The translations under genes and the position numbers were made by a program. A model generated the notes under the pieces. That model saw only the letters and a program-made list of their open reading frames with translations, was not told the origin of the DNA and made no database searches. A DNA stretch of 64,000 bases from an uncultured beta proteobacterium (lineage in GTDB: Bacteria > Pseudomonadota > Gammaproteobacteria > Burkholderiales > SG8-41). This document shows, piece by piece, positions 2,483 to 61,248 of the stretch (the stretch's first letter is position 1; the number at the start of each line of letters is the position of its first letter). The DNA is taken from positions 10,839 through 74,838 of the forward strand of contig CAWDIV010000001.1 in the NCBI GenBank assembly GCA_963802355.1, read 5' to 3'.

Positions 2483-3138
2483 GCGAAAGTTCCGGCAGCT
2501 CGGGAGATCGGGAGATCGGGAGCAGGAGGTCTGAGTCGAGCTCACGCCCTGACGCCCTCCCGCTCTCACGTCCGGCAGCTGACGCGCTGGCCGAGCGGCT
2601 GGCCGGCCTGTTAGCCCAGTGCGCAGTGAAAAACCAGCGTGCTTTTGCCGAGCTGTACACCCTTACCTCGGCGAAACTGTTTGGCGTCTCGTTACGTATA
2701 TTACGCAGGCAGGACTGGGCCGAAGAGGTGCTGCAGGAATGCTACGTCAGCATATGGACCCACGCCGGGGACTACGCTGCGACGAGGAGCGCGCCGCTTA
2801 CATGGATGACCAGCATCGTCCGCAACCGCTGTCTCGACTGGTTGCGCCGGCCGCAATCCGAGACCACCGGAGAGGAATACGAGATCGCGGTCGAGTCCTG
2901 GCAGGACGAGGCGGAGGGCCCGCTGGAACAGCTGATGGCAGCCGGTGAAGCCGGCGCGTTATCGCGCTGCCTCGCGCAACTGGAGCCAAAGCAGCGGCAG
3001 AGCATCGTGCTGGCCTTCTTCCACGGCCTGTCTCATTCGGAGCTGGCGAGCCACATGAAGCAGCCGCTCGGCACGGTCAAGACCTGGGTGCGGCGGGGAC
3101 TCGAGCGGCTGAAGGGCTGCCTGGCAGCCGCTGGGTGA
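2479..3138 (+). CDS. ECF-type RNA polymerase sigma-70 family factor
   Basis: Region 2 (AFAELYTLTSAKLFGVSLRILRRQDWAEEVLQECYVSIW) and region 4 HTH (LSHSELASHMKQPLGTVKTWVRRGLERLK). The GTG start overlaps the upstream stop (GTGA). Confidence 0.88.
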   Translation: MSESSGSSGDREIGSRRSESSSRPDALPLSRPAADALAERLAGLLAQCAVKNQRAFAELYTLTSAKLFGVSLRILRRQDWAEEVLQECYVSIWTHAGDYAATRSAPLTWMTSIVRNRCLDWLRRPQSETTGEEYEIAVESWQDEAEGPLEQLMAAGEAGALSRCLAQLEPKQRQSIVLAFFHGLSHSELASHMKQPLGTVKTWVRRGLERLKGCLAAAG

Positions 3139-3254
3139 ACGAGTGAACGGGTGAACGAGTGAACCCCCTCACCTCATCCCTCTCCCCCGGTAGACTGGGG
3201 AGAAGGTGCTTGTGGTTTTCACCCGTTCACTCGTTCACTCGTTCACTCGTTCAC
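3135..3254. repeat. Composite hairpin element: (GTGAACG)n arm, CCCTCTCCCCC..GGGGAGAAGG core, (CGTTCAC)n arm
   Basis: Left arm 3135-3164 is four GTGAAC(G/g)(A/G)G units. Right arm 3218-3254 is the complementary TTCAC(C/T)CG units. The core is itself palindromic. A homologous copy in opposite orientation lies at 6773-6890. Confidence 0.9.
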
Positions 3255-4641: not shown

Positions 4642-4728
4642 TTCATCCTTCATCCTTCATCCTTCATCCTTCATCCTTCATCCATTCATCCTTCATCCTT
4701 CATCCTTCATCCTTCATCCTTCATCCTT
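4642..4728. repeat. Tandem heptanucleotide array, about 12.5 copies of TTCATCC (one variant copy, CCATTCA)
   Basis: Read directly at 4642-4728. It lies between convergent genes, and the last units encode the C-terminal residues (..EKDEG*) of the minus-strand GNAT gene. Confidence 0.95.
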
Positions 4729-5220
4729 CTCGGCGAGGCGACGCAGGGCGTCGCCTGTTAGCCGAAAGACGCTCCATTCCCGCACCGGTTCGGCGCCTAT
4801 GCCTCGATAAAACCGGATCGCGGGCTCGTTCCAGTCGAGTACCGACCAGTCCAGCCTCGCGCAACCGCGAGCAGTGGCTACACCCGCAACGTACGCCAGC
4901 AATCTCCGGCCCAGCCCGCGGCGGCGCCAGCGCGGCTCCACGAAGAGATCCTCGAGGTACAGGCCCGGCTGTCCTGCAAAGGTGGAGAAAACAGGGAAAA
5001 AGACCGCGAAGCCTGCAGCCTCCTCGCCGGCGCGCGCGATAACGACCTCGGCGGCGGGGCGCGGCCCGAAAAGCGATGTGCGAAGGGCCTCTTCGGTGGC
5101 AACGACCTTGTGCGAGAGCCGCTGGTACTCCGCGAGCGCCTTGATCATGCCAAGAATGACCGGCACGTCGCGCTCCGTCGCCGCCTCGATGCGAAAATCC
5201 GCTGGTGGTTGAAGACTCAT
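4714..5220 (-). CDS. GNAT family N-acetyltransferase (diamine/spermidine acetyltransferase-like)
   Basis: MSLQPPADFRIEAATERDVPVILGMIKALAEYQRL...EDLFVEPRWRRRGLGRRLLAYVAGVA shows the acetyl-CoA binding motif. ATG 5220 was chosen inside the longer ORF 4714..5280. Confidence 0.85.
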   Translation of the reverse strand: MSLQPPADFRIEAATERDVPVILGMIKALAEYQRLSHKVVATEEALRTSLFGPRPAAEVVIARAGEEAAGFAVFFPVFSTFAGQPGLYLEDLFVEPRWRRRGLGRRLLAYVAGVATARGCARLDWSVLDWNEPAIRFYRGIGAEPVREWSVFRLTGDALRRLAEKDEG

Positions 5221-5885: not shown

Positions 5886-6866
5886 TCATCGGCGGTTGCG
5901 TCTGACCTGCTCCAGCGCCGCGCACGCCACGCGGGCACCTTCCAAAATCCTTGGCGTCTGCCGCTGTATTAGATCCGGATTGACGTAGTGCGCCGGCAGC
6001 TCGCGCAGCGGTGGCAGGGCCGATGCGCGCCAGTGGGCGGCAAACTCCTTCTCACCACCTGCCGAGCCGCCACCCAATATCACCTCGGGTTTCGCCGCGA
6101 TGATCGCTTCGAGCGAGACCGTCGGGGTGAGCTGGGATACATCCGAGAACACGTTTTCTCCTCCGCAGAGCGCTATCACGTCGCTGATCATGTGGGCGCC
6201 GTTCACCGTCATGAACGGCTTCGCCCAGATCGCGTAGAACACGCGCACCTTCGGCGCTTTCGCATACCGCTCGCGCAGCTCCCGGATGCCTCGCTCGAAC
6301 TCTCCCGCCGCGCGCTCGGCTTCGGTCTGCATTCCCGCCAGCGCCCCGATCGCCCGCAGCACGCGGGGAATATCGGTCAGGCGGCGCGGCTCCGCGACGA
6401 AGACAGCGTATCCCAGCCGCTCGAGGCGCTCGAAATCGCCGGTCCGGTTGCCGCTCCTCCACGCGAGAACGAGGTCTGGGCGCAAAGCGACAATACGCTC
6501 GAGATCGACGCTCACCGCGTCTCCCACCTGCGCAATCTTTCGAGCTGCCGGCGGGAAATCGCTGTGGCGCGCGACGCCGACGAGGCGTCCTCCCGCTCCC
6601 ACGGCAAACGCCAGCTCCGCGAGGCTAGGCGCGATTGCCACGATACGGTGCGCCGGACCGGCAAGCGTTACGGTTTTACCTGCATCGTCGATAACGGACA
6701 CGGGCTGCGCGCCCACCGGCGCAGAAGCCAGGAGGACGGCAATCAAGCCGCAGATAAACGCAGGAAAGAACCGGGAACGGGTGAACGGGTGAACGGGTGA
6801 ACGGGAAAAAACATGGACGCCCTCTCCCCCGCTACCGGGGGAGAGGGACGGGGTGAGGGGGCTCAC
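5886..6866 (-). CDS. Periplasmic ABC-type substrate-binding protein, BtuF/FecB-like (cobalamin or siderophore binding family)
   Basis: RIVAIAPSLAELAFAVGAGGRLVGVARHSDFP...VSVDLERIVALRPDLVLAW. The annotated N-terminus runs into repeat 6773-6890, so the true start is probably further downstream. Confidence 0.75.
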   Translation of the reverse strand: MSPLTPSLSPGSGGEGVHVFSRSPVHPFTRSRFFPAFICGLIAVLLASAPVGAQPVSVIDDAGKTVTLAGPAHRIVAIAPSLAELAFAVGAGGRLVGVARHSDFPPAARKIAQVGDAVSVDLERIVALRPDLVLAWRSGNRTGDFERLERLGYAVFVAEPRRLTDIPRVLRAIGALAGMQTEAERAAGEFERGIRELRERYAKAPKVRVFYAIWAKPFMTVNGAHMISDVIALCGGENVFSDVSQLTPTVSLEAIIAAKPEVILGGGSAGGEKEFAAHWRASALPPLRELPAHYVNPDLIQRQTPRILEGARVACAALEQVRRNRR

Positions 6867-6890
6867 TCGTTCACCCGTTCACCCTGTCAC
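6773..6890. repeat. Second copy (inverted orientation) of the GTGAACG-arm / CCCTCTCCCCC-core hairpin element
   Basis: The reverse complement aligns with 3135-3254 across arms and core (CCCCCTCACC..CCCTCTCCCCCGGTAG..GGGGAGAGGG). Confidence 0.9.
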
Positions 6891-7541: not shown

Positions 7542-8608
7542 CTATTCTGCCTGTGCCTTCAAACGCCGCTGGCGGACCGCGATCGAAAGCATGTCCAGCA
7601 CCTTGCGGCTTTCCTCCCAGGCCAGACAGCCGTCGGTGATACTCATGCCGTAAGTCAGTTCCTTGCCCGGGATCAGGTCTTGCCTTCCCCCCCTGAGATG
7701 GCTCTCGAGCATCATGCCGACGATGCGCTCGTCCCCGGCCGCGATCTGGCGCGCGACCTCCTCGCCCACCTCGGCCTGCTTCTCCGGCTTCTTGCTGCTG
7801 TTGCCGTGGCTGAAGTCGATCATGAGCCGGGCCGGTATACCGACTTCGGCCAGCGTCTTGCTGGCAGCATCCACGCTGGCGGCGTCGTAATTCGGCTTGC
7901 TTCCGCCGCGCAAGATGATGTGGCAATCTTCGTTACCGCTCGTGGATACGATGGCAGTATGACCGCCTTTGGTGACCGAGAGGAAGTGGTGCGGCGCCTG
8001 TGCTGCGCGGATCGCGTCCACCGCGATTCTCACGTTGCCGTCGGTTCCGTTCTTGAATCCGACCGGGCACGACAACCCCGACGCGAGCTCGCGGTGCACC
8101 TGGCTTTCGGTGGTGCGCGCGCCGATCGCGCCCCACGCCACCAGGTCCGCGATGTACTGGGGGGTGATCATGTCGAGAAACTCGCAGCCGACCGGCATTC
8201 CCATCTCGTTCAAGTCGAGCAGCAACTGGCGCGCGACGCGCAGGCCCTCATTGATGCTGAAGCTGCCGTCGAGCCTGGGATCGTTGATGAGCCCTTTCCA
8301 TCCCACAGTGGTGCGGGGCTTCTCGAAATAGACGCGCATGACCACCACCAGATCGGTTGCGAGAACGTCCTTCGCCTCCTTGAGCTTCCCGGCGTATCCT
8401 TGGCGGCCTTCACGTCATGGATGGAGCACGGCCCCATGACCACCAGCGCGCGGTCATCGGCTCCGTGCAGGATGCGATGGATGGCGTGCCGCGTTTCGTA
8501 CGTGGTTTCGGCGGCTTTGTCCGAGAGGGGGAATTCGCGCAGCAGGTGCGACGGCGGAACGAGTTCCTTGATCTCCAGCACACGAACGTCATCAGTCCGG
8601 TAATGCAT
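7542..8608 (-). CDS. Class I 3-deoxy-7-phosphoheptulonate (DAHP) synthase, AroF/G/H type; reading frame broken by one apparent 1-nt deletion near 8398
   Basis: N-terminal ORF 8210..8608 (..LVVMGPCSIHDVKAAK) and C-terminal ORF 7542..8348 (VVMRVYFEKPRTTVGWKGLINDP..) are in different frames. The junction AAGGATACGCCGGG should read AAG GAn TAC GCC GGG (KEYAG). Confidence 0.9.
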
Positions 8609-8647: not shown

Positions 8648-8734
8648 GTGAAGGTAAGCCGTGAGCAGGAAGCGGAAACAACGAACAGTAAAGCAGTCGC
8701 GCAGCGGGTGGACCATTACCGCTTACTGCTTACC
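8648..8734. repeat. Heptamer-arm hairpin element (GTAAGCG/GTGAGCA family)
   Basis: Left arm GTGAAGGTAAGCCGTGAGCAGGAAGCGG. Right arm CCGCTTACTGCTTACC. The same heptamer family occurs at 45976-46064. Confidence 0.75.
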
Positions 8735-8739
8735 GGATT

Positions 8740-10215
8740 TTAGACCGTGCCGCCAACGGTCAGGCCGTCTATCCGCAGCGTTGGCTGGCCGACACCAACC
8801 GGCACGCTCTGCCCTTCCTTGCCGCAGGTGCCGACGCCAGGATCGAGCGCCATGTCGTTGCCGATCATGGCCACCCGGGTGAGCGCGTCCGGACCATTGC
8901 CGATGAGGGTCGCGCCCTTCACCGGATAGGCGAGCTTGCCGTTCTCGATGATGTAGGCCTCCGACGCCGAAAACACGAATTTGCCGCTGGTGATATCCAC
9001 CTGGCCGCCGCCGAAGTTCACGGCGTATATGCCGTTATTGACCGACGCGATGATCTCCTCGCGCGACTTGTCGCCATTCAGCATATAGGTGTTGGTCATG
9101 CGCGGCATCGGAATGTGCGCGTAGGATTCGCGACGGCCGTTACCCGTCGGAGGGACGTTCATCAGCCGCGCGTTCAAGCTGTCCTGCATGTAGCTTTTGA
9201 GCACGCCATTCTCGATCAACACGTTGCGCTGCGTCGGATGGCCCTCGTCGTCGATGTTGAGCGAGCCGCGCCGGGTTGCGATCGTGCCGTCGTCCACGAC
9301 GGTCACTCCCGGTGCCGCGACGCGCTCGCCGATCCTTCCGCTGAAGGTGGATGTCCCCTTGCGGTTGAAATCGCCTTCGAGGCCGTGCCCGACCGCCTCG
9401 TGCAGCAGCACGCCCGGCCACCCGGGACCGAGCACCACGGTCATGGTACCCGCGGGGGCGGGCCTCGCTTCGAGATTGACGAGCGCCTGGTCCACCGCCT
9501 TCTTCGCGTAGTCCTGGAGCACCTCGTCGGTAAAGTACGCGTAATCGAACCGCCCACCGCCGCCGGAACTGCCCTGCTCGCGCCGGCCTTCCTGCTCCAC
9601 GATCACCTGCAACGAGAGCCGCGTGAGCGGCCGCACGTCGGCGGCCAGCACGCCGTCCGATCGCGCGATCAGGATGACTTCGTACTCCCCGGCAAGATAA
9701 GCCATGACCTGGGAGACGCGCGGGTCGAGAGAGCGCGCGCAACGCTCGATACGCTCGAGCAAGGCGACTTTAGCCCGATCATCGAGACTCGCCAGTGGGT
9801 CCTGGGGCACGTACAGGTTGTGACCTGCGCGGCGCGTTACGACCTGCGTGCGGCTCGTCTGACCCTGGCGCGCAATGGCGCGAGTGGCCTCCGCGGCGGA
9901 AGTGAGGGCCGCCAGGCTGATGTCATCCGAATAGGCGAATGCGGTTTTCTCGCCGGATAGCGCCCTGACACCAACACCCTGGTCGATGTTGAAGCTGCCC
10001 GATTTGACGATGCCCTCCTCAAGGCTCCAGGACTCGCTGCGGGTGTACTGGAAGTAGAGGTCTGCGTGATCCACCCGATGCGCCATGATTTGACCGAAAA
10101 CGGTCTCGAGGCGGTTGCCGTCGAGGGCGTAGGGGGCGAGCAACACCTCGTTCGCTGTCGCGAACGAGGTTTCAAGTTTCAAGTTTGAAGTTTGAAGTTT
10201 GGGTGCGTCGGTCAT
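8740..10215 (-). CDS. tldD: Metalloprotease TldD
   Basis: [35 protein letters not shown]...[18 protein letters not shown] (HExxxH-type TldD motif). Intact. The ATG at 10215 is preferred over the TTG at 10233. Confidence 0.93.
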
Positions 10216-10308
10216 AGCGCTAACGGGGGCCAAGTCAGGTGGGTAAATAAGAAAGATTGCGTCGATTGTCGGTTTTTCAACCTCAAACTTGAAACCTCAA
10301 ACTTGAAC
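10168..10308. repeat. Heptamer-arm hairpin element (GTTTCAA/GTTTGAA family) enclosing the tldD start region
   Basis: The left arm 10168-10203 lies inside the first codons of tldD. The right arm 10276-10308 (CAAACTTGAAAC units) is complementary. Confidence 0.8.
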
Positions 10309-11207
10309 TAGCACCGGTCCAGAGTCCGGTGAGTGAGCGCCGGCAGGCTCTGCCGCAGGCCGCGCAAATATTGCAGGTTGACGCCCGCCACCACCACGCC
10401 CGAGCCGCGCGGCAGACGGTCGAGCACTACTCCCCACGGGTCGACGATCATGCTGTCGCCGTGCGTTTCGCGCCCGTTCACGTGATAGCCGCCCTGCGCT
10501 GGAGCGAGCACGTAGGCGAGATTCTCGATCGCGCGCGCCCGGATCAGCGTTTCCCAATGCGCCTTGCCCGTGGTCTCGGTAAAGGCCGACGGCACGAGTA
10601 TGACGTCCACGTCCTTCATCGCGCGGTAGAGCTCGGGAAAGCGCAGGTCGTAACAGATTGAGGCGCCGAGGCGGGCGAATGGTGTATCGACCGTGACCAC
10701 GGCGCGGCCCGGCTCTATCGTGCGCTCTTCGGCGTAGCTCTCCTGCCCCATCTCGAATCCGAACAGGTGGATCTTGTCGTAGCGCGCGGCAAGCAGCCCC
10801 TTGTCGTCGTAGATGAGACAGCTGTTGCGCACTTTCCCGGCCGACTCGCATTCGAGGGGAACGGAGCCGCCGACGAGCCAGATCCCGTGCTTCTTCGCGG
10901 TCATCGAGAGAAAATCCTGGATCGGACCGCCTCCCTCCTTCTCGCGCACCGCCACCTTGTCGGTGTCCCGCATGCCCATGATGCCGAAATACTCGGGCAG
11001 CGCGACCAGCCTCGCGCCCTTGTCTACGGCCATCTCGATCAAGCGCCCCGCTTCCTGAAGATTGCCCTCGACGCTGGGCCCGGAAGCCATCTGCACGGCC
11101 GCGATACGCGTCACGCCGCTCTGCGGCGCCTGCGCCGACTTGCCTAAAGATGGACGGGGGCTCACGACGGATGAAGGATGAAGGATGAGGGCTGAGGGAT
11201 GATGCAA
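10308..11207 (-). CDS. Carbon-nitrogen hydrolase (nitrilase superfamily) protein
   Basis: RIAAVQMASGPSVEGNLQEAGRLIEMAVDKGARLVALPEYF...ICYDLRFPELY...VPSAFT. The N-terminal 30 aa overlap a GGATGAA repeat, so the start is uncertain. Confidence 0.88.
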   Translation of the reverse strand: MHHPSALILHPSSVVSPRPSLGKSAQAPQSGVTRIAAVQMASGPSVEGNLQEAGRLIEMAVDKGARLVALPEYFGIMGMRDTDKVAVREKEGGGPIQDFLSMTAKKHGIWLVGGSVPLECESAGKVRNSCLIYDDKGLLAARYDKIHLFGFEMGQESYAEERTIEPGRAVVTVDTPFARLGASICYDLRFPELYRAMKDVDVILVPSAFTETTGKAHWETLIRARAIENLAYVLAPAQGGYHVNGRETHGDSMIVDPWGVVLDRLPRGSGVVVAGVNLQYLRGLRQSLPALTHRTLDRC

Positions 11208-11229
11208 CTCGTCACTTCGTCACCAGTTT

Positions 11230-20288: not shown

Positions 20289-21217
20289 ATGTCAATGGCT
20301 GATCGCGACGGGCACATCTGGTACGACGGGAAGCTCGTGCCCTGGCGCAGCGCCACGACACACGTGCTCACGCATACCCTGCATTACGGCATGGGCGTGT
20401 TCGAAGGCGTGCGCGCCTACAAGACAGCGAACGGCACCGCGATCTTCCGCCTTCGCGAGCACACCGATCGCCTCTTCCGCTCGGCGCACATCAACGGCAT
20501 GAAGATCCCGTACGACAAGCAGACGCTGGTCGAGGCGCAGAAGGAAGTCGTGCGCGCCAACAAGCTCGAATCCTGCTACATCCGTCCGATCGCGTTTTAC
20601 GGCTCCGAGGAGATGGGAGTGTCCGCCGAAGGGCGTAATCGTGCACGTCGCCATCGCCGCCTGGCCGTGGGGGGCCTATCTCGGGCCGGAAGCAATCGAG
20701 AACGGCATACGCGTCAAGACTTCGTCCTACGCGCGCCATCACGTCAACGTCACCATGTGCCGGGCGAAGTCAGTCGGCACCTACATGAATTCGATTCTCG
20801 CGCACCACGAGGCGACTCAGCACGGCTACGACGAGGCCCTGCTCCTCGACGTGGACGGCTTCGTCGCCGAAGGGCTCCGGAGAGAATATCTTCATCGTGA
20901 GCAACGGCACGCTCTACGAGCCGGAGCTCACTTCCGCGCTGGAAGGCATCACGCGCGACTCCGTCATCCGGCTCGCTGGCGATTTCGGCATACCGGTTGT
21001 CGCGAAGCGCATCACGCGCGATGAGGTATACGTGGCGGACGAGGCGTTCTTCACCGGCACCGCGGCCGAAGTTACGCCGATCCGGGAGCTGGACAACCGC
21101 GCCATCGGCAGCGGCAGGCGCGGCCCGATCACCGAGAAGCTGCAGAAGGCGTTTTTCGACTGCGTGCTGGGGAAGTCGGAGAAGTACCGCGACTGGCTGA
21201 CGCCGGTTGCCGCGTGA
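20289..21217 (+). CDS. ilvE: Branched-chain amino acid aminotransferase; 2 frameshifts (near 20635 and 20880)
   Basis: [35 protein letters not shown]..., [15 protein letters not shown] and [30 protein letters not shown] are spread over three frames. Confidence 0.9.
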
Positions 21218-21538: not shown

Positions 21539-21699
21539 GAAGGCACAAGGCACAAGGATGAAGGCAAAAGGTAACAGCATTCCGGTTACCTCGAGCCTCG
21601 CCTTCCAGCCTGATGGATTTCTGCAGAGAGGTGATCTGCCGCGCAACGCGGTGCCGTTTTTCGCCCTTTTGCCTTTTGCCTTTTGCCTTTTGCCTTCAT
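21539..21699. repeat. Heptamer-arm hairpin element (GGCACAA/GGCAAAA/GGATGAA family)
   Basis: Left arm GAAGGCACAAGGCACAAGGATGAAGGCAAAAGG. Right arm CCCTTTTGCCTTTTGCCTTTTGCCTTTTGCCTTCAT, which ends in the waaF ATG. Confidence 0.85.
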
Positions 21700-27323: not shown

Positions 27324-28700
27324 GTGTTTACGCTGCCTGGAGAAATTTTCAAGGCCTACGATGTTCGCGGCATAGTCGGCCGCACATTGACGCCGGAGAT
27401 CGTCGAGCAGATCGGCCGGGCGATCGGGTCGGAAGCGCTCGCGCGAGGCGGCGCGAAAATCGCCATCGGCTATGACGGCCGGCTGTCCGGCCCGAGGCTG
27501 GCCGCAGCCCTTGCCCGGGGCATACAAGCAACCGGCATCGATGTGATCGACGTCGGGCGCGTCACGACGCCGATGGTGTACTTCGCCGCGCAGCATTTGA
27601 AGACCGGCTCGGGCGTTGCCGTCACCGGCAGCCACAATCCGCCCGACTACAACGGGCTGAAGATCGTAGTCTGCGGTGAGACGCTCTCCGGCGAAGGAAT
27701 ACAGAAGCTGCGCCTCCGTATCGAGAACGGGGACCTCGCGCAAGGCGCGGGCAGCTTCGAGCGGCAAGATATTACCCGCGCTTACCTCGACCGCGTCATC
27801 GGCGATATCAAGCTCGCGCGGCCCATGAAGCTCGTCGTCGACTGCGGGAACGGCGTGCCGGGCGCATTCGCACCGGTGCTGTACCGCGGACTGGGATGCG
27901 AAGTCTTCGAGTTGTTCTGCGAGGTGGACGGCAACTTTCCCAATCACCATCCCGACCCGTCCCAGCCCGACAACCTGCGCGACGTCATGGCCGCCCTGCG
28001 CGAAGGAAAGGGAGAGCTGGGGTTCGCCTTCGACGGCGACGGCGATCGCCTCGGTGTCGTGACGCGTAACGGCAGGATCATCTATCCCGACCGCTTACTG
28101 ATGCTGTTCGCTGCCGATGTGCTGAAACGCCAGCCCGGGGCCGGCATCATCTTCGACATCAAGTCAACGCGCAACCTCGCGCCGTGGGTCAAGCAGCACG
28201 GCGGAACGCCCATCCTCTGGAAGACGGGGCATTCCCTCATCAAGAAAAAGCTCCAGGAAACCGGCGCGGCGCTTGCCGGAGAGATGAGCGGGCATTTCTT
28301 TTTCCGCGAGCGCTGGTACGGCTTCGATGACGCGCTGTATGCAGGTGCGCGGCTGCTCGAGATTCTCTCGCGAGAGAGCGATCCCGGCGCCGTGCTCGAA
28401 GCGCTGCCGGACGCGCTCAGCACGCCCGAGCTGCACATGAAGCTCACCGAGGGCGAGAACTACGCGCTGATCGACAAGCTGCGGCAGACAGCGAAGTTCG
28501 ACGGCGCGCGCGAAGTGATCACGATCGATGGTTTGCGGGTCGAATACCCGGACGGCTTCGGGCTGGCGCGGTCTTCCAATACGACACCGGTAGTCGTGCT
28601 GCGCTTCGAGGCGGATGACGAAGCGGCGTTGAAGCGTATCCAGGAAGATTTCCGGCGGGCGATTCTGGCTGTCAAGAAGGACGCAGCGCTGCCGTTCTAA
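27324..28700 (+). CDS. Phosphomannomutase/phosphoglucomutase (AlgC/ManB type)
   Basis: IFKAYDVRGIVG, active-site TGSHNPPDYNGLKI, FAFDGDGDRLGVV, GEMSGHFFF. Intact. The GTG 27324 start lies within ORF 27264..28700. Confidence 0.92.
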   Translation: MFTLPGEIFKAYDVRGIVGRTLTPEIVEQIGRAIGSEALARGGAKIAIGYDGRLSGPRLAAALARGIQATGIDVIDVGRVTTPMVYFAAQHLKTGSGVAVTGSHNPPDYNGLKIVVCGETLSGEGIQKLRLRIENGDLAQGAGSFERQDITRAYLDRVIGDIKLARPMKLVVDCGNGVPGAFAPVLYRGLGCEVFELFCEVDGNFPNHHPDPSQPDNLRDVMAALREGKGELGFAFDGDGDRLGVVTRNGRIIYPDRLLMLFAADVLKRQPGAGIIFDIKSTRNLAPWVKQHGGTPILWKTGHSLIKKKLQETGAALAGEMSGHFFFRERWYGFDDALYAGARLLEILSRESDPGAVLEALPDALSTPELHMKLTEGENYALIDKLRQTAKFDGAREVITIDGLRVEYPDGFGLARSSNTTPVVVLRFEADDEAALKRIQEDFRRAILAVKKDAALPF

Positions 28701-28767
28701 AGGCAGAAGGCAAAAGGCAAAAGTCTTATCAGAAAACCTTATGCCTTTTCCCTTGTGCCTTGTGCCT
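28700..28767. repeat. Heptamer-arm hairpin (GGCAAAA/GGCACAA family) acting as a convergent-gene terminator-like element
   Basis: AAGGCAGAAGGCAAAAGGCAAAAG ... CTTATGCCTTTTCCCTTGTGCCTTGTGCCT. The same heptamers occur at 21539-21699. Confidence 0.85.
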
Positions 28768-41396: not shown

Positions 41397-41560
41397 GAGA
41401 TCGAGTGTCGAGTGTCGAGTGTCGAGTGTCGATGGGCGTCTACGCCTGGCATCTGGTTTCCGTTTGGCGCTTCCAGCGTTCTGCCTCCTGCTCTTTCTCT
41501 TCATTCCTCGTCCCTCGTCACGCGCAGCCAATCACTCGACACCCGGCACTCGTCCCTCTG
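41397..41560. repeat. Heptamer-arm hairpin element (GTGTCGA family)
   Basis: Left arm GAGA(TCGAGTG)x4 TCGA at 41397-41432. A partial complement TCACTCGACACCCGGCACTCG lies at 41532-41552. Confidence 0.7.
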
Positions 41561-45297: not shown

Positions 45298-45481
45298 GCC
45301 ACAGAGGACATAGAGTTCACAGAGGAAACCACCCCACCTTGCGCTCGTGGAGGGCGAAGCCGCTTTCAACCGGAAAAATCTCCTTCCCCTCACGGAGGGA
45401 GGGCCGCGCAGCACGCCAGGGGGCCTTGAGATGGGGGTGGTGCTCATTCGATCTCTCTGTGTTCTCTGTGATCTCTGTGGC
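45298..45481. repeat. Long composite hairpin element with CACAGAG heptamer arms
   Basis: GCCACAGAGGACATAGAGTTCACAGAGGAAACC (45298-45330) against ATCTCTCTGTGTTCTCTGTGATCTCTGTGGC (45451-45481). Nested inner complements are CCACCCCACC/GGGGGTGGTG and CCTTCCCCTCAC/GGAGGGAGGG. Confidence 0.85.
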
Positions 45482-45495
45482 TATTGTTTTTTTGC

Positions 45496-45966
45496 TTACT
45501 CGATTCGCTTCAGAAGGTTGGCCATTTCGATCGCCGCCAGCGCGCAATCTTCGCCTTTCTGCGTCATGCGCGCGAGCGCCTGGGCTTCGTCGCCGGTCGT
45601 CAAAATGCCATTGGCGATCGGGACCCCGGTATCGAGCGCGACCGTGGTGATACCGCTCGCGGATTCGTTCGAGACTATCTCGAAATGATAGGTCTCACCC
45701 CGAATCACCGCTCCGAGCGCGATCAGGGCGTGGAATTTTCCGGTGTTCGCCATTTTCTGCAACGCCAGCGGAATCTCGAGCGCGCCCGGCACCGAAACGA
45801 CTTGGAGATCAGACTGGCTCACGCCGTGCTTCGCAAGCGCCGCAATACAACTCGATAGCAATCCCTCGCCGACGTCCAGGTTGAAGCGACCCATGACGAT
45901 GCCGATCCGCAGGCCGGTCCCGCGCAGATCGGGCTCGAGCTCGTCGATGTCTTTGTTGCGCGCCAT
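45496..45966 (-). CDS. ribH: 6,7-dimethyl-8-ribityllumazine synthase
   Basis: [51 protein letters not shown]. Confidence 0.93.
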
Positions 45967-45975
45967 TTCAAATCC

Positions 45976-46064
45976 GTGAGCGGTAAGCGGTGAGCAGTGA
46001 GCAGTCGGCTAAGAGCGTCGGGATGCGAAGTTTACCGCTTACTGCTTACCGCTTACTGCTTACC
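45976..46064. repeat. Heptamer-arm hairpin element (GTAAGCG/GTGAGCA family) between ribH and ribBA
   Basis: GTGAGCGGTAAGCGGTGAGCAGTGAGCAG (45976-46004) against TACCGCTTACTGCTTACCGCTTACTGCTTACC (46033-46064). The right arm supplies the last codons of ribBA. Confidence 0.88.
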
Positions 46065-47189: not shown

Positions 47190-47486
47190 AATGAGGGGAT
47201 ACTCCCCTCATGCTCCCTGGAATCTATCTCAACCATAGGCACTTGTGCGACGGAGGCGACGTGGGATGCAGTTCGAGGAGGAGAGCCCGCAGCAATATGT
47301 CGATATTGCAAGGGTTCCCGACGAAGAAATGCGCCCAGATCGCCCCGTCCCTTCGGGTTGCGGCCAGGACGGGCGTCTGCGTTGTTGCCCGGCTTGACCA
47401 TATCGACATATGGCCTGCACCGTGCGCCTAGCATCCATCCCGTCCTGGCCACAACGCATCACGCGCCTATGGTTGAGATAGGTTCC
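47190..47486. repeat. Copy 2 of the stem-closed structured element
   Basis: Aligns with 39079-39399 apart from one hairpin swap. Terminal complement 47219-47240 / 47465-47486; 12-nt helix 47362-47373 / 47439-47450. Confidence 0.85.
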
Positions 47487-52468: not shown

Positions 52469-53258
52469 GCAGCCCAGTTTCGGCAGGGTTTTCTTTTAAG
52501 CCCTCATCTCGCTCCGCACTCGCACTATTTCTCTTCTGGCTTCAGTCGGCGCGTAGTGAACTTGGCCGCATCGCGGAACATCGTAGTGCAACCCTTGCAT
52601 TGGTAAGCCTGCGTCCAACGTAGAACCCCTTCCCTTGTTCTCGATGTAGACCTGCGAGAACTCGTCGGCGCCGCAGATAGGGCAAATAAAGGGGATGCGT
52701 GACGCCGTATTGCCCATAGCTGTATAAGCATACAGTCACGACCTATTCCGACTCAAGTCTTACAGACCCCATTTTCAGTCATTCAAAGTGACATGTTGAG
52801 CAGCCCTAATTAAGATAGGCCGAGGTCATGCGAATGGAGGTGTAGAAAAAGCCAATATGTCGCGTTCAAAAAAGCAGAACGGTCAGCAACCTGACGCCAC
52901 TACGCTAATAACCCACCCAATTGGCGCTACGTTCTTCCCCGCGCAATCCATCGGCGCCATCGAGGCGTACTTGACCAGATGGAACGGGACATCCTGAACG
53001 CCCCCGCCCAGGGAGACCACGAGAGCTGCGATCCTTGACGGTCAAGCCCGACGTGACGCTGCCTGACGTTCCCGAGACCGGCGTGTACGGGTCGAGCGGA
53101 AGCGGAGGCTGCATTAGCGCTGTTTTCGACCCGCAATTATCCGGTTGCATTGAATGGCCGCTTCCTGAAACTCGAATGGCTGGTTTCGGGAAACGTGACT
53201 GCCCGTGATCGACCCTAACCCGCCACTCAGGTTTCCCGAAACCGGTCACTCGCGTCGT

Positions 53259-54248
53259 TTACTCGATTACCTTGTCCGCACGCGCCAGGATCGACTGCGG
53301 GATCGTGATGCCCAGCGCCTTGGCGGTCTTTAGGTTCACCACCAGCTCGAACTTGGTCGGCTGCTCGACGGGAAGGTCTGCAGGTTTCGCTCCCTTGAGT
53401 ATCTTGTCTACGAAATAGGCGGCACGCTTGAAGTACTTCGTTAGATCAGGTCCATAGCTCATGAGGGCTCCCGCTTCTGCGAATTGGGAGGGTGCGCTCA
53501 TTGTTGGTAGTCGTTGCGCCAAGGCGAGCCGAGCTAATTGCGCTCGGTTTCTAACTAAAAGGGGTGTGTGGGCAAGAACTACGGCGTCTACCTGTTTTTT
53601 TCGCGCCAGACTGAATGCTCGCTCGATATCGTCGGCATTGTCGATCTTGATCGGCTCGACTTCTAAACCGAGTTTGCGAGCGGCGGCCTGCAGATCATCG
53701 GATTGAAGGACCCCTCCTGGGTTGGTGCTCTCCCACATTATGGCCAGCCTTCGCATTCTCGGGAGCACCTCTTTGAATAACTCAACTTCTTTGCCCGCAA
53801 GCTCCACGACTTGATCCGTCATACCCGTTAGATTGCCACCTGGGCGCGCGAGACTTGCGACCAGACCGCTCCGCAGCACATCTGACGCAACTGCCACGAC
53901 GATAGGTATGCTAGTGGTTGCCGCTTTGACGATTTGTGCGGCCTGGAGCCCGTGGGTGACGATGACGTCAACCTTGAGGCGGACCAATTCGGTGGCAAGC
54001 ATCGTTCGTCGCTCGGCGCTTCCTTCCGTCCACCGTACCTCGATAGTGATATTGCGCCCATCAACATAGCCTAGTTCGGCCATAGCTTCGCGAAATGGCT
54101 CGAAAGAATCGGCCGCGCGTTGGGCTGCTGTCCCGTCACCAAGGTAGCCAATGCGCCAGACTCTGGATTGTTGCTGCGAAAAAGACGCTAGCGGCGCCGC
54201 GAGCGCGCCTGCGCCGAGCACAATGATCAGTTTGCGGCGATTGTTCAT
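53259..54248 (-). CDS. ABC-transporter-type substrate-binding protein, ABC_sub_bind family, orphan (paralog a)
   Basis: MNNRRKLIIVLGAGALAAPLASFSQQ..VWRIGYL..VDVIVTHG..YFVDKILKGAKPADLPVEQPTKFELVVNLKTAKALGITIPQSILARADKVIE. Confidence 0.88.
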   Translation of the reverse strand: MNNRRKLIIVLGAGALAAPLASFSQQQSRVWRIGYLGDGTAAQRAADSFEPFREAMAELGYVDGRNITIEVRWTEGSAERRTMLATELVRLKVDVIVTHGLQAAQIVKAATTSIPIVVAVASDVLRSGLVASLARPGGNLTGMTDQVVELAGKEVELFKEVLPRMRRLAIMWESTNPGGVLQSDDLQAAARKLGLEVEPIKIDNADDIERAFSLARKKQVDAVVLAHTPLLVRNRAQLARLALAQRLPTMSAPSQFAEAGALMSYGPDLTKYFKRAAYFVDKILKGAKPADLPVEQPTKFELVVNLKTAKALGITIPQSILARADKVIE

Positions 54249-54479
54249 TCCCCCTCCCAATCCGCACGGCTATTATGCTCGCTTACCCCAAGGACAGCAG
54301 GCCGCGAGTCCAACGGGGGAGTGTCACAGACGACCGGTTTTGGCCGGCTACGGCCTGCTGCCGGCAGATTCCAATTTTCCAGATAGCGGCCGTTGCCGGA
54401 CAGACGTAATCGGTAGAGTCGAGATGTGGCGCGGTGGCGGTAGGTTCGGTTTGTCTGTTGCCGCCCCTTTCGTCTGGCG

Positions 54480-55138
54480 GTGCCCGAGTAACCTCGCCGT
54501 AGCTCCGTTTCCACATCCCGCTCATCGAACCGGACATGCAGATCTCCCGCATCCGGCTCTCGGACAAGACATCACGCCTGCTTGCGCGTGCAACGCCCTC
54601 TGCGGTTTCTGAACCCTGTCGGAGTTGATAGGGTTGTCCCAATCTCCAGGTCCCTCACCACGTCTTGCGTCAGCCTTGAACTGAGGCCCCTTCCCTCCAT
54701 CGGCGTTACCCGACTTCAGCGGTACTATGAGCCTCTCCGAGATCCCAAGGCGCCCGGCCTGTCCCTCGCGGGCATCCGGTTGATCGTCCCTGATCGCGCC
54801 TCGGGACTTCCCGTGTTGCGTGCGCTTTCCTGGTGTGCATGCTGTCGCCACTGCCCCGGCGCAGCAACCGGGCTGACTGCTTCGCTCATTCACCCAGTCG
54901 TATCAACCTTCCCCGAAAGGGTTGTCGGGTCGGCCTGCGCATCGACCTTTTCGAGGTTTGCTCAGCGTTCACTCACGTTACGGCCTGCACACTCGCCAAG
55001 TCACCTATATGTGACCCTCTGCACCGAAGGCTTCAGCCACTTCGTTACCTCCATGACTGCTCCGATTGCTTCCGGCTGGAGCCGTTGCCGGGTGGGCCTT
55101 ACACCCACTGGAAAGCGCCGCCTTGTCACGGCGCACAC
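54480..55138 (-). mobile_element. ORF-less (IEP-deleted) group II intron remnant
   Basis: The minus strand starts GTGTGCGCCGTGAC (GUGYG-type 5' end at 55138/55136). Domain V GAGCCGGAUGCGGGAGAUCUGCAUGUCCGGUUC lies at 54527-54559 (AGC triad, 2-nt bulge, GAGA loop). A relic of the maturase N-terminus ([18 protein letters not shown]) lies at 54581-54633. The 3' end is approximate. Confidence 0.7.
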
Positions 55139-55182
55139 CCGTTGCGGTCAGTCGTTGTTCTCGATAGCGGACATTGCCGTGG

Positions 55183-56238
55183 TCACTCAATCACCTTGTC
55201 GGCGCGCACGAGAATCGTGTTTGGAATTGTGATCCCGAGCGCCTTGGCCGTCTTCAGATTCACCACCAGCTCGATCCTCGTCGGCTGCTCGATCGGCATG
55301 TCGGCCGGCTTCGCGCCCTTGAGAATCCGGTCGACGTAGTAGGCGGCACGGCGGTAACTTGCCGACTCGTCAACCCCGTAGCTCAGCAAGGCACCTGCGT
55401 CAGCCCACTCCCCGACACTGCCGATGGCCGGCCAGCGTTGCTCCTGCGCAAACTTCACGATGCGCCGCCGCTCGGTGTGGAAAACACCCGGGCTCGGCAT
55501 CACGACGAGCGCTTGCGCGCCTTCCTTCGCCAGGCGCGCCAGGGCGGGCTCGATCTCTTCCGGACGAGCCACCTCGGCGATCCGTGCCTCCACCGAGTAT
55601 TGCGATACGGAGCGATGCATGTTTGCCAGAAGCGGGACAAGATTCGCGGAGGTGGTATCGACCAGAAAGCCGATGCGCCGCAGCCTGGGCGCCGCGGCGA
55701 GCAGCAGCTCCAGGTATTTCTCGGAGACGTCGCTCGTCAAACTGGCGATCCCAGTGACCATGCCGCCGGGCCGCGCGAGGCTTGTCGCCAGTCCCGCGAC
55801 GACCGGATTGCCGCCGATCACGACGACGGGCGTCCTGGGCGCGGCCTTGGTGGCGGCTCTTGCTGCCGGTGTCGGCACGGCAACAATGACCGCCGCTCGC
55901 TTCGCCGCCAGTTCGTCGGCCAGTGCTGGCAGACGGTCCATCCGGCCGTCCGCCCAGCGCTCTTCGATCACGACCTGGGACCCCTCCTTCATGCCTAGCG
56001 CGGCGAGCCCCTCCCTGAATGCGGCATGCAAATGCCCATTCCCCTCGCGCGGGCGCGCGTTCAGGAGACCGATCAAGACCGGCATCTGCGTTGTCTGTGC
56101 TCGCGCCGCACCCGTCCACGCGAGCGCGGGGCACGCCGCTGCCGCGAGGAGAAACGCCCGGCGCGTTGAACGGCACGCAGTGTCCGTTCGAACGCGACGA
56201 CGTAAACCGGCACGCCAGTGTCCAGGTTTACGGTTCAC
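55183..56238 (-). CDS. ABC_sub_bind family substrate-binding protein (paralog b)
   Basis: Ends ..YYVDRILKGAKPADMPIEQPTRIELVVNLKTAKALGITIPNTILVRADKVIE. The GTG start overlaps the stop of paralog c (GTGA). Confidence 0.85.
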   Translation of the reverse strand: MNRKPGHWRAGLRRRVRTDTACRSTRRAFLLAAAACPALAWTGAARAQTTQMPVLIGLLNARPREGNGHLHAAFREGLAALGMKEGSQVVIEERWADGRMDRLPALADELAAKRAAVIVAVPTPAARAATKAAPRTPVVVIGGNPVVAGLATSLARPGGMVTGIASLTSDVSEKYLELLLAAAPRLRRIGFLVDTTSANLVPLLANMHRSVSQYSVEARIAEVARPEEIEPALARLAKEGAQALVVMPSPGVFHTERRRIVKFAQEQRWPAIGSVGEWADAGALLSYGVDESASYRRAAYYVDRILKGAKPADMPIEQPTRIELVVNLKTAKALGITIPNTILVRADKVIE

Positions 56239-57225
56239 TCGATCACCCGGTCCGCGCGCACCAGGATGGACTGCGGGATCGTGATTCCGAGCGCTTTGGC
56301 GGTTTTCATGTTGACCACCAGCTCGAACCTGGTCGGCTGCTCGATGGGAAGATCACTCGGCTTTGTGCCCTTGAAAATCCGGTCCACGTAGTAGGCGGCG
56401 CGGCGCCAATTGTCTACTTGATTTGACGCGTAGCCCATCAGAATCCCGCGCTGCACGTGTGGCAAATTGATCGAAGCAGACGGCAGCCGATGCTTCACCG
56501 CCAGTTCCGCGATCTGGTGCATTTGCTGGGTGAAAAGGTTGCCGCCCGCAACGATCACCGCACGTACGTTCTCCCGGTTCATTCGGGAAAATGCGTCTTC
56601 GATTTCCACTGCGTTCCCCGCCTGCATCGGCAGGATCGTTACGCCCGCCTTCTGCGCTGCTGGCTGATAACTATTCATGACGTTGATGGAGCCGGGGCTG
56701 GCTGGGTCATACAGGACGGCCGCACGATTGAGCTTGGGCATGATGCCCAGCAGGATTTCCAGATTTTTGGACCCGAGTTCGCCAGTGAGGTCCGTGAGCC
56801 CGGTGATGTTGCCGCCAGGCCGCGCCAGACTCTTGACGAGGCCAGTTGCGACCGGATCAGAGACGCCCAGCATGACGATTGGAATGGCAGTGGTTGCTTT
56901 CTGCACCGCACTCGCACTGGGTGTCCCGCTTGCCACGATGACGTCCACTTTCAGCCGCACCAGTTCCGCCGCAAGGCCCGGTAAGCGCTCTGCCTTGCCC
57001 TTCGGCGAAGCGCCACTCGATGACGAGGTTTTTTCCCTCGACATAGCCAAGGTCCTTCAACCCTCGCAGAAAACCGTCACGTAGGTCTGAATCCACTTGG
57101 GTGAACTCAGCCGGCACCCTGAGAGCCCCGACCCGCCAGATTTTGCCCTCTTGCTGCGCGAACGCCGCCCGCGGCGCAAGCGCAGCGGCGCCGAACGCGA
57201 TGAGCAGATCGCGACGTCTGTTCAC
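56235..57225 (-). pseudogene. ABC_sub_bind family paralog c, split by one frameshift near 57000
   Basis: The N-terminal ORF 56857..57225 (MNRRRDLLIAFGAAALAPRAAFAQQEGKIWRVG..) and the C-terminal ORF 56235..57050 (..RLPGLAAELVRLKVDVIVASG..ADRVIE) are in different frames. Confidence 0.8.
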
Positions 57226-58244
57226 TCGATCACCCTGTCGGCACGCACCAGTATCGACTGCGGGATCGTGAGGCCGAGCGCCTTGGCGGTCTTCATGTTG
57301 ACCACCAGCTCAAACTTCGTGGGCTGCTCGATTGGCAGGTCGGCGGGCTTGGCTCCCTTTAAGATCTTGTCCACGAAATATGCGACGCGCCGGTAGCTCT
57401 CCGCTTGGACCGTCCCGTAGGACATGAGGCCACCGGCCTCTACAGCGATTCTGCTGCCGTACACCGACGGTAACCGGCTTTTTATCGCAAAGCCCGCGAT
57501 CCGTTTTACGTTAGCACCTAATAACTGGCCCCCGCCGGACACATAGAGTCCATCCGGGCGCTGCTTGTTTAGCGCAGCGAATACCTTCTCGAAATCGTCC
57601 GCATCTCGTACCTCCCAAGGCTGAACGGTCAACCCCAGCGCACGCGCCGCGACAGGGAGAACCTCTTTCACTTCGCGTGTAGTGCCCGGAATTGTCGGGT
57701 CGTAGAGAACCGCGACACGGGCAACTTTGGGAACGGCTTCTTTGAGCAGCTCCAGCCGCTTCCCGCCTAGCTTTGGGCCAAGGTTTGTAATGCCGGTGAC
57801 GTTGGCGCCGGGACGGGCAAGGCTTTCAACAAAGCCTGCCTCAACAGGATCGGGCCCAGCGCCCACCATAATGATGGGAATCGTCTTGGTCGCATTCTTA
57901 GCCGCCTGGGTAGTGGTCCCTCCTGCTGAAACGATGAGATCAACCTTGAGACCCACCAGCTCGGCGGCAAGCTCAGGGAGCCGATCGCGCTTCCCCTCCG
58001 CATATCGGTACTCGATGTCGATGTTTTGTCCTTCGATGTAGCCAAGCTCGCGCAGAGCCAGCCGAATCGCCTCGGCACGGGTGGACTCACTAGCTGAATC
58101 GAGCGGCGATAAATGCCCTATCAGCGGGACTTTCTTCGGCTGCTGCGCTGACGCAGAATAGCAAAGCGCAAAGAGCATGGCGCAAAGAGTAAGGATTGTG
58201 ATTTTTCCCTGTCGAGTAGACATCGAAATGTCTCCTTTAGGCAT
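57222..58244 (-). CDS. ABC_sub_bind family substrate-binding protein (paralog d)
   Basis: ..KVPLIGHLSP..VDLIVSAGG..YFVDKILKGAKPADLPIEQPTKFELVVNMKTAKALGLTIPQSILVRADRVIE. Its stop overlaps the start of paralog c. Confidence 0.88.
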   Translation of the reverse strand: MPKGDISMSTRQGKITILTLCAMLFALCYSASAQQPKKVPLIGHLSPLDSASESTRAEAIRLALRELGYIEGQNIDIEYRYAEGKRDRLPELAAELVGLKVDLIVSAGGTTTQAAKNATKTIPIIMVGAGPDPVEAGFVESLARPGANVTGITNLGPKLGGKRLELLKEAVPKVARVAVLYDPTIPGTTREVKEVLPVAARALGLTVQPWEVRDADDFEKVFAALNKQRPDGLYVSGGGQLLGANVKRIAGFAIKSRLPSVYGSRIAVEAGGLMSYGTVQAESYRRVAYFVDKILKGAKPADLPIEQPTKFELVVNMKTAKALGLTIPQSILVRADRVIE

Positions 58245-61100: not shown

Positions 61101-61248
61101 GGCCGAGGCTGTGTGAAAACGGATTTTGACGCTAATTTTGAGGGTCGTGAGACCATTACCCGAGTGCCGATCGTCGATCCTAGCGCGTCTAATAGCCTCG
61201 ATAATTTTCTCGGACCTTCAATTTCCGAGTTTTCACACAGCCTCGGCC
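61101..61248. repeat. Small inverted-repeat element: 20-bp perfect IR flanking 108 bp
   Basis: GGCCGAGGCTGTGTGAAAAC (61101-61120) and GTTTTCACACAGCCTCGGCC (61229-61248). It is flanked by GACCGCTTCT and GGTCCGCGACCG, as in the leader-motif copies. Confidence 0.75.

Follow-up and report, generated by a model that had tools for sequence, protein, structure and literature searches.

What are the hairpins with tandem-repeat arms that lie between the genes of an uncultured beta proteobacterium, and is the complementarity of their arms maintained by the cell? The window, a 64,000-nt stretch of contig CAWDIV010000001.1 with a G+C content of 62.5%, raises this question at ribH, the lumazine synthase gene, which is flanked by such a hairpin on each side. 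An element consists of an array of short head-to-tail units, a spacer and the complementary array. These hairpins are real, abundant and lineage-typical, far beyond chance, and they are characteristic of a clade of uncultured Burkholderiales from soil and sediment. We consider it moderately likely that they are palindromic elements derived from simple-sequence repeats (SSRs) of the long SSR (LSSR) or short tandemly repeated repetitive (STRR) type, in part resembling repetitive extragenic palindromes (REPs) or MITEs (miniature inverted-repeat transposable elements), which arise by slippage, inverted duplication and occasional copying.

Abundance, placement and units of the hairpins

Tandem arrays with a period of 6–10 nt numbered 18 in the window compared to 0.55 per shuffle (own detector, 20 shuffles). 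The same detector found a strict array plus its complement at seven loci in the window and at none in the 20 shuffles, so the common layout of array, spacer and complementary array described in an earlier note on this DNA stands well beyond chance. In all, nine paired loci with array and complement 20–130 nt apart were recognized, together with two more single arrays. Tandem Repeats Finder (TRF) reported short-period arrays at each locus that the note had listed, and on re-reading of the sequence every interval contained what had been described there. The inverted-repeat scan paired arms at 3135/3225, 6789/6850, 10178/10284, 21539/21665, 41403/41533, 45297/45455 and 45971/46034. Folding was assessed by minimum free energy (MFE) and by a z-score against dinucleotide shuffles (Table 1). 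The statement that hairpins occupy nearly every gap of the core region was too broad; many gaps are indeed occupied, with about 11 of the ~21 gaps of at least 50 nt in 1–47 kb holding an element.

On the basis of Pfam assignments for the flanking genes, eight of the nine paired loci lie between co-directional genes, and the elements mostly start 0–15 nt past the upstream stop codon and end 0–45 nt before the next start codon. Their placement within operon-like gene strings, as previously noted, was confirmed for ECF (extracytoplasmic function) sigma/anti-sigma, pgpA/cinA, CN-hydrolase-tldD-aroG and ribBA-ribH-nusB. Elements reaching in this way from stop to start codon would be co-transcribed with their operons. 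The description of the hairpins as intergenic holds for most of their length, since all window arrays with a period of 7–9 nt lie in gaps or overlap gene ends, but several reach into genes. The stop codon of ribBA (46053-46055, - strand) falls within an arm of the hairpin beside it, the TGA stop codon of the sigma gene is the TGA of the first unit in the 3135..3254 element, that of the pgm-like gene likewise sits in or at a first unit, and the start of the GT9 gene overlaps a unit. The one coding arm is found at the N terminus of TldD, where the start codon is at 10215-10213 and the 3′ arm of the hairpin at 10168-10308 is made up of codons 5–16. The 16 N-terminal residues of TldD (10168-10215, - strand) are thus partly encoded by a tandem heptamer arm, in which the number of units (five) is constant in three genomes and the unit sequence, hence the peptide, changes. 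The arm-encoded peptide differs between the window and a 99%-identical relative, which has SELETRNSKLET. Similarly, the C-terminal tail and stop codon of RibBA differ in each genome compared (window, L081, L082 and L084). The elements therefore reshape gene ends by way of stop codons, new C-terminal tails and the N-terminal TldD peptide.

The unit period in the window is 7, 8 (GTGAACGR) or 9 (CACAGAGNN) nt, with 11–12 nt in relatives, and in several arrays TRF resolved two units in exact alternation, giving dimers of 14 or 16 nt. Hairpins of families other than GTGAAC had periods of 7 nt in 18 cases, 8 nt in four and 9 nt in three. The suggestion of a conserved 7-nt period is thus not borne out, and the unit first given as CACAGAG is itself 9 nt long. 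Nor is the unit different and unconstrained at each locus: at least seven unit families were counted overall in the window, and GTGAACGR, GTRAGCR, GGCAMAA and GGATGAA each recur at two window loci. A shared core was examined in 62 arrays from the window and from relatives identified through RibH and TldD, none of which was chosen by pattern, using shuffling of each unit as the control. GTGA/TCAC was present in 29 of the 62 arrays compared to 5.1 ± 2.2 in the unit-shuffled controls, a roughly six-fold enrichment, and TGA was present in 41 compared to 13.5, with no enrichment of TAG in the same 62 arrays against the same control. Additionally, the arms have an order. In the GTGAACGN family GTGAAC...GTTCAC was found 26 times and the reverse once, and the 5′ arm was purine-rich in 19 of 26 hairpins (19:7) of other families. 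Stop codons were commoner in 5′ arms than in 3′ arms. A generalized element may accordingly be pictured as an array of 7–9-nt units with an inverted copy, the 5′ arm being usually purine-rich and often carrying GTGA, around a variable loop that appears to take insertions readily.

The two arms of the 45298..45481 hairpin, each 28 nt long, were 82% complementary in the inverted-repeat scan and were reported by TRF with a period of 9, separated by a loop of ~130 nt. This loop carries an insertion that is missing from the homologous hairpins of the relatives L082 and L084 and that, folded alone, performs no better than shuffles. As the earlier note had stated, the arrays at 4642-4729 and 11169-11204 are in one orientation only and without a complementary partner. 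Two adjacent, unrelated and non-complementary arrays share one gap in L081 (965-1070; GGGACTA x4 beside CAGTCACGNNTCAY x3.5), in the window (11164-11226) and in L210 (19270-19450), which indicates that arrays can arise without a hairpin partner.

The remaining features of the window are included in Table 1. The splitting of aroG and of the class IV aminotransferase gene reflects either assembly frameshift errors or pseudogenes. No flavin mononucleotide riboswitch was found upstream of ribBA (47191-47486) in the Rfam search.

Table 1. Coordinates of tandem-array elements and other features in the window (MFE in kcal/mol; z against dinucleotide shuffles)
Feature	Position	Strand	Structure and context	MFE	z
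GTGAACGR element, copy 1	3135..3254	+	8-nt unit, ~4 units per arm; gap from ECF sigma to anti-sigma (RskA)	-75.5	-8.6
Nested REP-like module	3165..3206	+	In loop of 3135 element: CCCCTCACC-nn-CCCTCTCCCC-loop-GGGGAGAGGG
TTCATCC x12.4 array	4642..4729		Single orientation, no complementary partner
GTGAACGR element, copy 2	6773..6890	-	Inverted relative to 3135 copy; gap between cNMP-binding and periplasmic-binding-protein genes	-80.8	-8.2
Nested REP-like module, second window copy	6820-6860	-
aroG	7542-8608	-	Split in two open reading frames (ORFs)
Decayed GTRAGCR hairpin	8648..8734		Between tldD stop and aroG promoter-like region; shuffles fold equally well	about -25	-0.3
GTTTSAA hairpin	10168..10308		Begins at CN-hydrolase stop codon; 3′ arm 10168-10202 inside tldD	-34.5	-3.0
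GGATGAA x ~5, then TCGTCAC x2	11164..11226		Second unit different and non-complementary
Class IV aminotransferase	20289-21217	+	Split in two ORFs
GGCAMAA/TTKTGCC hairpin	21539..21699		Upstream of GT9 heptosyltransferase gene; ATG at 21697 overlaps last unit	-60.3	-3.8
GGCAMAA hairpin	28700..28767		Fills 72-nt gap of convergent pgm-like and tctC; TAA stop overlaps first unit	-29.2	-3.9
GTGTCGA x4.6 array	41397..41560		Degenerate complementary arm on the right; between pgpA and cinA
ribH-nusB hairpin	45298..45481		Between ribH stop and nusB start; 9-nt unit CACAGAGNN and complement, ~3 units per arm
Insertion in ribH-nusB hairpin loop	45335-45450		~115 nt, 9-bp inverted ends CACCACCCC / GGGGTGGTG
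ribH	45496..45966	-	PF00885 in homologs
ribBA-ribH hairpin	45976..46064		7-nt unit GTRAGCR / YGCTYAC, arms of 4.3 and 4.7 units	-40.3 on sense (-) strand	-4.9
Terminator-like hairpin and T-run	47191-47211	-	Directly upstream of ribBA
27-nt inverted repeat	47219-47486		Arms 214 nt apart; near ribBA
32-nt inverted repeat	53170-53255		81% complementary; arms without tandem units
Four tandem ABC transporter substrate-binding paralogs (PF04392)	53259-58244	-	Lower-GC part of window (59%)
Group II intron RNA domains	54482-55110	-	RF02003 D1-D4, 103 bits; RF00029, 39 bits; between paralogous ABC_sub_bind genes; no obvious intron-encoded protein ORF
Perfect 20-nt inverted repeat	61101-61248		108-nt spacer; arms without tandem units

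Turnover, dispersal and pairing of the arms

The proteins closest to RibH and TldD of the window come from metagenome-assembled genomes of uncultured soil and sediment Burkholderiales/Betaproteobacteria, and an exact-protein look-up found no identical protein on record for the window RibH. RibH and TldD were used as anchors to compare the window with relatives whose flanking proteins are 88–99% identical to its own; the loci compared, in relatives or in metagenomes, carry L numbers (L085-L204 being metagenome loci). The ribH-nusB hairpins were compared by eye, as automatic alignment was defeated by the loop insertion. Opposite the CACAGAK hairpin of the window with its insertion, this gap is empty (27 nt) in L081 (RibH 99% identical), is filled in L082 (96%) by a CACAGAK hairpin homologous to that of the window and by a further AACAGGAT hairpin, and is filled in L084 (88%) by a homologous CACAGAK hairpin. 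The ribBA-ribH gap contains three unrelated unit types across the compared genomes, namely the GTRAGCR hairpin of the window, which has a decayed homolog in L084, a GGGACTA x4 array with a non-complementary 14-nt array in L081, and a weak hairpin with an 8-nt unit in L082, the last two being unrelated to the hairpin of the window. In the tldD-aroG gap, L207 and L208 have 5 nt and 28 nt, respectively, with no array, L206 and L210 have other arrays, and L205 (TldD 99% identical) has an intact 4+3-unit GTRAGCR hairpin (MFE -59.3, z -8.8). The window retains a 2+2-unit remnant, two units fewer on the left and one fewer on the right than in this close relative. Identity between the window and L205 is 96.4% without gaps in the tldD coding sequence, 87.5% in the flanking untranslated region and 76–78% in the arms. 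Finally, the window has GTGAACGR in the sigma/anti-sigma gap, where L208 has AACAGGATT and L210 has two arrays that are not complementary. Sequence comparison thus indicates that turnover is rapid, with one gap able to be empty, to hold a homologous hairpin with other unit numbers, or to hold an unrelated family.

Several families are dispersed within a genome. The 3135 (+) and 6773 (-) elements of the window align end to end on opposite strands, inner module included. In L208, two near-identical AACAGGATT elements lie in the CN-hydrolase-tldD and sigma/anti-sigma gaps and have arm irregularities in common and different loops, and diverged AACAGGATT copies are present in L082 and L210. Three GGACGCCAA elements with unrelated centers were found in L176 and L199, L176 being from the broad group of uncultured betaproteobacteria to which the window also belongs. 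Homology over the whole length is therefore seen for the 3135/6773 pair, and homology in the arms only for the L208 and L199 copies. Scanning metagenomes for three GTGAACGN units gave 120 loci, with 67 evaluable arrays in contigs of at least 55% G+C. A complementary partner within 280 nt was present in 27 of the 67 and lacking in 40. Directly next to the partnerless arrays there are often arrays of mutated units, with GTGAACGG followed, for example, by GTGATGGG, GTGAGCGG or GTGTGAGG, a signature of mutation and in-place re-expansion. In GC-rich contigs, 26 GTGAACGN arrays (L085-L204) lie no more than 200 nt from a contig end, so these repeats seem to break short-read assemblies.

The inner module, which can face either way, was present in ~10 of 22 GTGAACGN hairpins from metagenomes. 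It is GC-rich, often followed by a T-rich run, and also occurs in L055, L070, L165 and L203. In other betaproteobacterial genomes the module is free-standing, and it is therefore an independent REP-like element for which the loops serve as insertion sites. A role as an oriented terminator was rejected on the basis of its orientation with respect to genes (four sense and three antisense).

The eighth position of the GTGAACGN unit provided a direct view of pairing, as it varies freely between purines (R) in the 5′ arm and pyrimidines (Y) in the 3′ arm. Across 68 in-register pairs from 25 hairpins there were 25 Watson-Crick pairs, 19 A.C, 15 G.T and nine others, and the Watson-Crick count did not exceed the 27.8 ± 3.8 obtained with partners shuffled. 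Each arm is homogenized on its own; in L142, A occupies this position in all three 5′ units and C in all three 3′ units. Arms are also unequal in length, with 2 vs 15 or 7 vs 3 units (asymmetric arms in L179, L198 and L103), and L103 carries an eight-unit run of a variant unit on one arm with no complement on the other. With pairing at the variable site at chance level, nothing shows that complementarity is actively maintained. The proposal that the arms are kept complementary by a mechanism, or by a reader of geometry, is not supported by this count or by the asymmetric arms. The comparison of orthologous gaps, suggested at the same time, did yield homologous hairpins, with differing unit numbers. 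On the reading favored here, complementarity would be a legacy of the origin of the elements and would not be maintained or read by a cell component.

A signal in the transcript was not evident either. A first caller of gene orientation based on GC3 was unreliable (it miscalled the 6773 locus of the window) and was replaced. The antisense strand folds better in six of the eight co-directional window cases and the sense strand in two, an effect that comes mostly from two loci with 6–8 G.U pairs on the + strand, and no folding preference for the transcribed strand was found across 52 hairpins at all loci (30:22). The ribBA-ribH hairpin, for example, has an MFE of -58.2 on the + strand. As a separate observation, the + strand folds better in eight of nine window hairpins, whatever the strand of the genes, and the window as a whole has a slightly negative GC skew (-0.023); a connection with the replication strand is possible. 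No Rfam match was obtained at the hairpins, either at the gathering score or at E ≤ 1, the only match in the window being the group II intron elsewhere. An intrinsic terminator was considered and rejected, as the terminator and promoter scan made no call at the hairpins, the loops are long (20–130 nt) and a U-run is lacking on the sense strand in most cases.

Origin of the elements and rival explanations

The favored origin by slippage, inverted duplication and occasional copying would proceed in steps suggested by these comparative patterns. Replication slippage would create, expand, contract and homogenize each arm separately. The complementary arm would be placed by inverted duplication through intrastrand template switching, which is able to make a hairpin stem in one step (PMC8794818), or by copying of a whole element. 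Some families would then be copied into new gaps in the manner of MITEs or of REPINs (paired REP hairpins), and CpG-type transitions and decay would erode the elements. Most copies are probably near-neutral. By analogy with REPs, any effect would most likely be generic, with the intercistronic stem-loop of 24–35 bp acting as an exonuclease barrier or as an RNase III substrate.

Several observations weigh against this origin. The fixed arm order (26:1 and 19/26) is not predicted by undirected slippage and template switching, and neither is the enrichment of GTGA; both suggest that selection, biased seeding or an agent with sequence specificity is involved. Order and bias could have come about if arrays were seeded through duplication at the TGA stop codon upstream, if stops in all three frames were selected at the element edge, or if a fixed element structure was inherited via copying by some enzyme. 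Gaps have been reoccupied repeatedly, in different genomes, by unrelated families, which could mean that the gaps need a hairpin. In the CN-hydrolase-tldD hairpin, a two-sided change from CGA to CAA separates L207 from the window, with L205 as the intermediate, and is compatible with compensatory evolution. The variable arm sites are CpG-type transitions (CCCG/CTCG, TCGA/TCAA), so this change can also come from parallel hot-spot mutation. Among the sites compared, no pair of empty and filled sites is clean enough to reveal the arrival of an element, and no target-site duplication is visible, as no consistent direct repeat flanks the more than 20 elements inspected.

The elements could instead be non-autonomous mobile elements of the MITE or REPIN kind. 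A dedicated enzyme with its gene at another place in the genome, for example, a single-strand transposase of the IS200/IS605 type or similar to the REP-associated tyrosine transposases (RAYTs), would act on the hairpin or on the GTGA-type arm and copy complete elements into gaps, with slippage being secondary. This alternative is possible but on the whole unlikely. It would account for near-identical copies dispersed in one genome with arm irregularities in common, for the 26:1 arm order, for the AACAGGATT family at non-orthologous gaps in L082, L208 and L210, for presence/absence polymorphism among close relatives and for the use of loops as targets of nested insertions, and the lack of target-site duplication is as in IS200/RAYT systems. 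However, the earlier proposal to search for a RAYT-like gene, followed here within the window, yielded no transposase or RAYT among the 30 ORFs scanned with Pfam, including those of the lower-GC right-hand third. A head-to-tail unit of 7–9 nt falls short of the length of an ordinary transposase binding site, copies are alike in arms and not in loops, a GTAG or CGTC tag is lacking, and 40 of the 67 arrays have no partner. Furthermore, to serve the many unit families, either a large set of enzymes or a single enzyme with low specificity would be required. There is nevertheless a modest chance that a specific enzyme takes part, given the polarity, the GTGA core and the way in which the elements are dispersed. 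A more speculative version, which we regard as quite unlikely, attributes the arm polarity, the GTGA core and the recurrent filling of particular gaps to an undescribed sequence- or structure-specific agent, for example, a single-strand transposase or nuclease that nicks GTGA-type units, which would make the elements a new class of self-expanding, hairpin-borne mobile DNA. Slipped periodic stems would here prime their own extension and copying, and the ends of the element would be simple-sequence repeats.

Selection for a function in RNA or translation, as termination or insulation elements, RNase III or exonuclease-barrier sites, or three-frame ribosome stops, is unlikely. The placement just past stops and before starts fits such a function, as do the excess of TGA, which a 7- or 8-nt period puts in all three frames, the larger number of stop codons in 5′ arms and the repeated occupation of the same gaps across genomes. 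Stems of 24–35 bp suffice for an RNase III substrate or an exonuclease barrier. The cyanobacterial literature also suggests roles in transcript stability or translational coupling (PMC2670836). However, the sense strand is not better folded (2/8 in the window, 30:22 overall), the variable site shows no covariation, U-tracts and terminator calls are lacking, and roughly one family in three lacks a stop codon in its unit. Decayed copies persist (8648 and L084), and gaps of close relatives are empty without visible compensation. That the arrays bind a nucleoid-associated or regulatory protein on convergent GTGA/TCAC repeats is very improbable in spite of the GTGA enrichment and the fixed GTGA...TCAC orientation, given that about half of the arrays have no GTGA, the 7–9-bp spacing is off the helical repeat, the loop length varies from 20 to 220 nt, unit families are freely replaced at one gap and no candidate protein was identified. 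An assembly or sequencing artifact, an objection raised in the earlier note, could be suspected from the indel errors that the split aroG and aminotransferase ORFs suggest. This explanation is excluded for practical purposes, because the same architecture and sometimes homologous hairpins occur in independent MEGAHIT, SPAdes, JGI, Logan and long-read assemblies from different technologies and samples.

Tandem heptamers are over-represented in scattered bacterial lineages, and this clade offers unusually clean material for asking why, with dozens of hairpins in conserved synteny and relatives graded from 88 to 99% identity that allow single slippage, inverted-duplication and copying events to be reconstructed. 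Stems of 24–35 bp within the sigma/anti-sigma and riboflavin operons could affect expression, and metagenome assemblies are visibly fragmented by the repeats. If the polarity and the GTGA bias proved to be enzymatic, the elements would define small mobile DNA of a new kind; otherwise they would offer a good natural setting in which to measure the building of long hairpins by mutation alone.

Relation to known repeat systems

The earlier note did not recognize a described repeat class in these hairpins, a view that is not upheld. Precedents exist in the STRR at hupS-hupL of cyanobacteria (PMC2670836), in the GGGAATC arrays of Xanthomonas (PMC4692102) and among long SSRs (PMC4679880), so the architecture is not undescribed, although it is uncurated and mechanistically not understood. 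The note was right, on the other hand, that the elements are not a single-consensus REP or enterobacterial repetitive intergenic consensus (ERIC) family, as they comprise many unit families and lack the GTAG/CGTC tag.

Other assignments were set aside. Integron attC sites were rejected because the arms do not fit RYYYAAC...GTTRRRY and the flanks are conserved core genes in conserved synteny. CRISPR and iterons were considered and dropped, as were CRP-type or two-component binding sites, whose spacing does not fit, and G-quadruplex repeats, since most units are not G-rich.

REP, bacterial interspersed mosaic element (BIME) and REPIN sequences are likewise extragenic palindromes between cistrons near stops, multi-copy, with nested insertions and without target-site duplication, and their unit is a hairpin doublet (PMC3116915, PMC3733652). 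REPs differ in having one consensus of 20–40 nt per family, a GTAG or CGTC tag and a RAYT gene, whereas the stems in the window are tandem 7–9-mers, and neither tag is conserved at the hairpin ends of the window or metagenomic elements. The MITEs Correia/NEMIS and ERIC share small size, lack of coding capacity, terminal inverted repeats, dispersal and presence/absence polymorphism. Unlike MITEs, the elements here show no target-site duplication, have no known parent insertion sequence, are conserved in the arms and not in the interior, and have tandem-repetitive arms of variable length. The TAACTGA repeats of Beggiatoaceae, cyanobacteria and Bacteroidetes are intergenic, provide stops in all three frames and lie just upstream of starts or overlap the ends of upstream ORFs, with one inverted case among 170 sets (PMC4679880). 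That repeat is one fixed heptamer, almost always direct, in contrast to the many units and inverted pairs of the window.

The closest likeness is to LSSR and STRR sequences. Like those repeats, which are defined by three or more head-to-tail copies of a 5–11-nt (mostly 7-nt) unit, the arrays exceed chance, are mostly non-coding, fall into several families and show slippage between relatives. In the survey by Mrazek et al. (2007), as summarized in later papers (PMC4679880, PMC4692102), heptamer-dominated long SSRs with 5–11-nt units are mostly non-coding and enriched in scattered genomes, among them those of actinobacteria, cyanobacteria, Burkholderia and Xanthomonas, and slippage of the polymerase was put forward as their source. 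That description, as summarized there, covers direct arrays, and the paired inverted layout and dispersed families lie outside it. The inverted layout itself, a convergent complementary array that folds as a stem-loop, is the arrangement of the STRR and Xanthomonas repeats. In Xanthomonas, Rehm et al. (2015) reported 70–75 convergent, stem-loop-capable pairs of GGGAATC arrays per genome, and two close species do not have their arrays at the same genes (PMC4692102). These are also intergenic tandem heptamers in close convergent pairs, but with a single G-rich consensus of G-quadruplex potential, whereas the window has many families of 7–9 nt that are mostly not prone to form G-quadruplexes. Cyanobacterial STRRs are hairpin-forming tandem heptamers found inside operons, as at hupS-hupL, for which transcript stability or translational coupling has been suggested, and they share with the window tandem 7-bp units, several families per genome and intergenic positions, including within operons (PMC2670836). 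They belong to a different phylum and have AT-rich units, and the STRR descriptions, in the portions consulted, do not include 8–9-nt periods, a GTGA core, arm polarity, nested REP-like modules or turnover. Overall, the hairpins of the window appear to belong to a repeat type known from cyanobacteria and Xanthomonas, in a version that evolves fast and is partly mobile.

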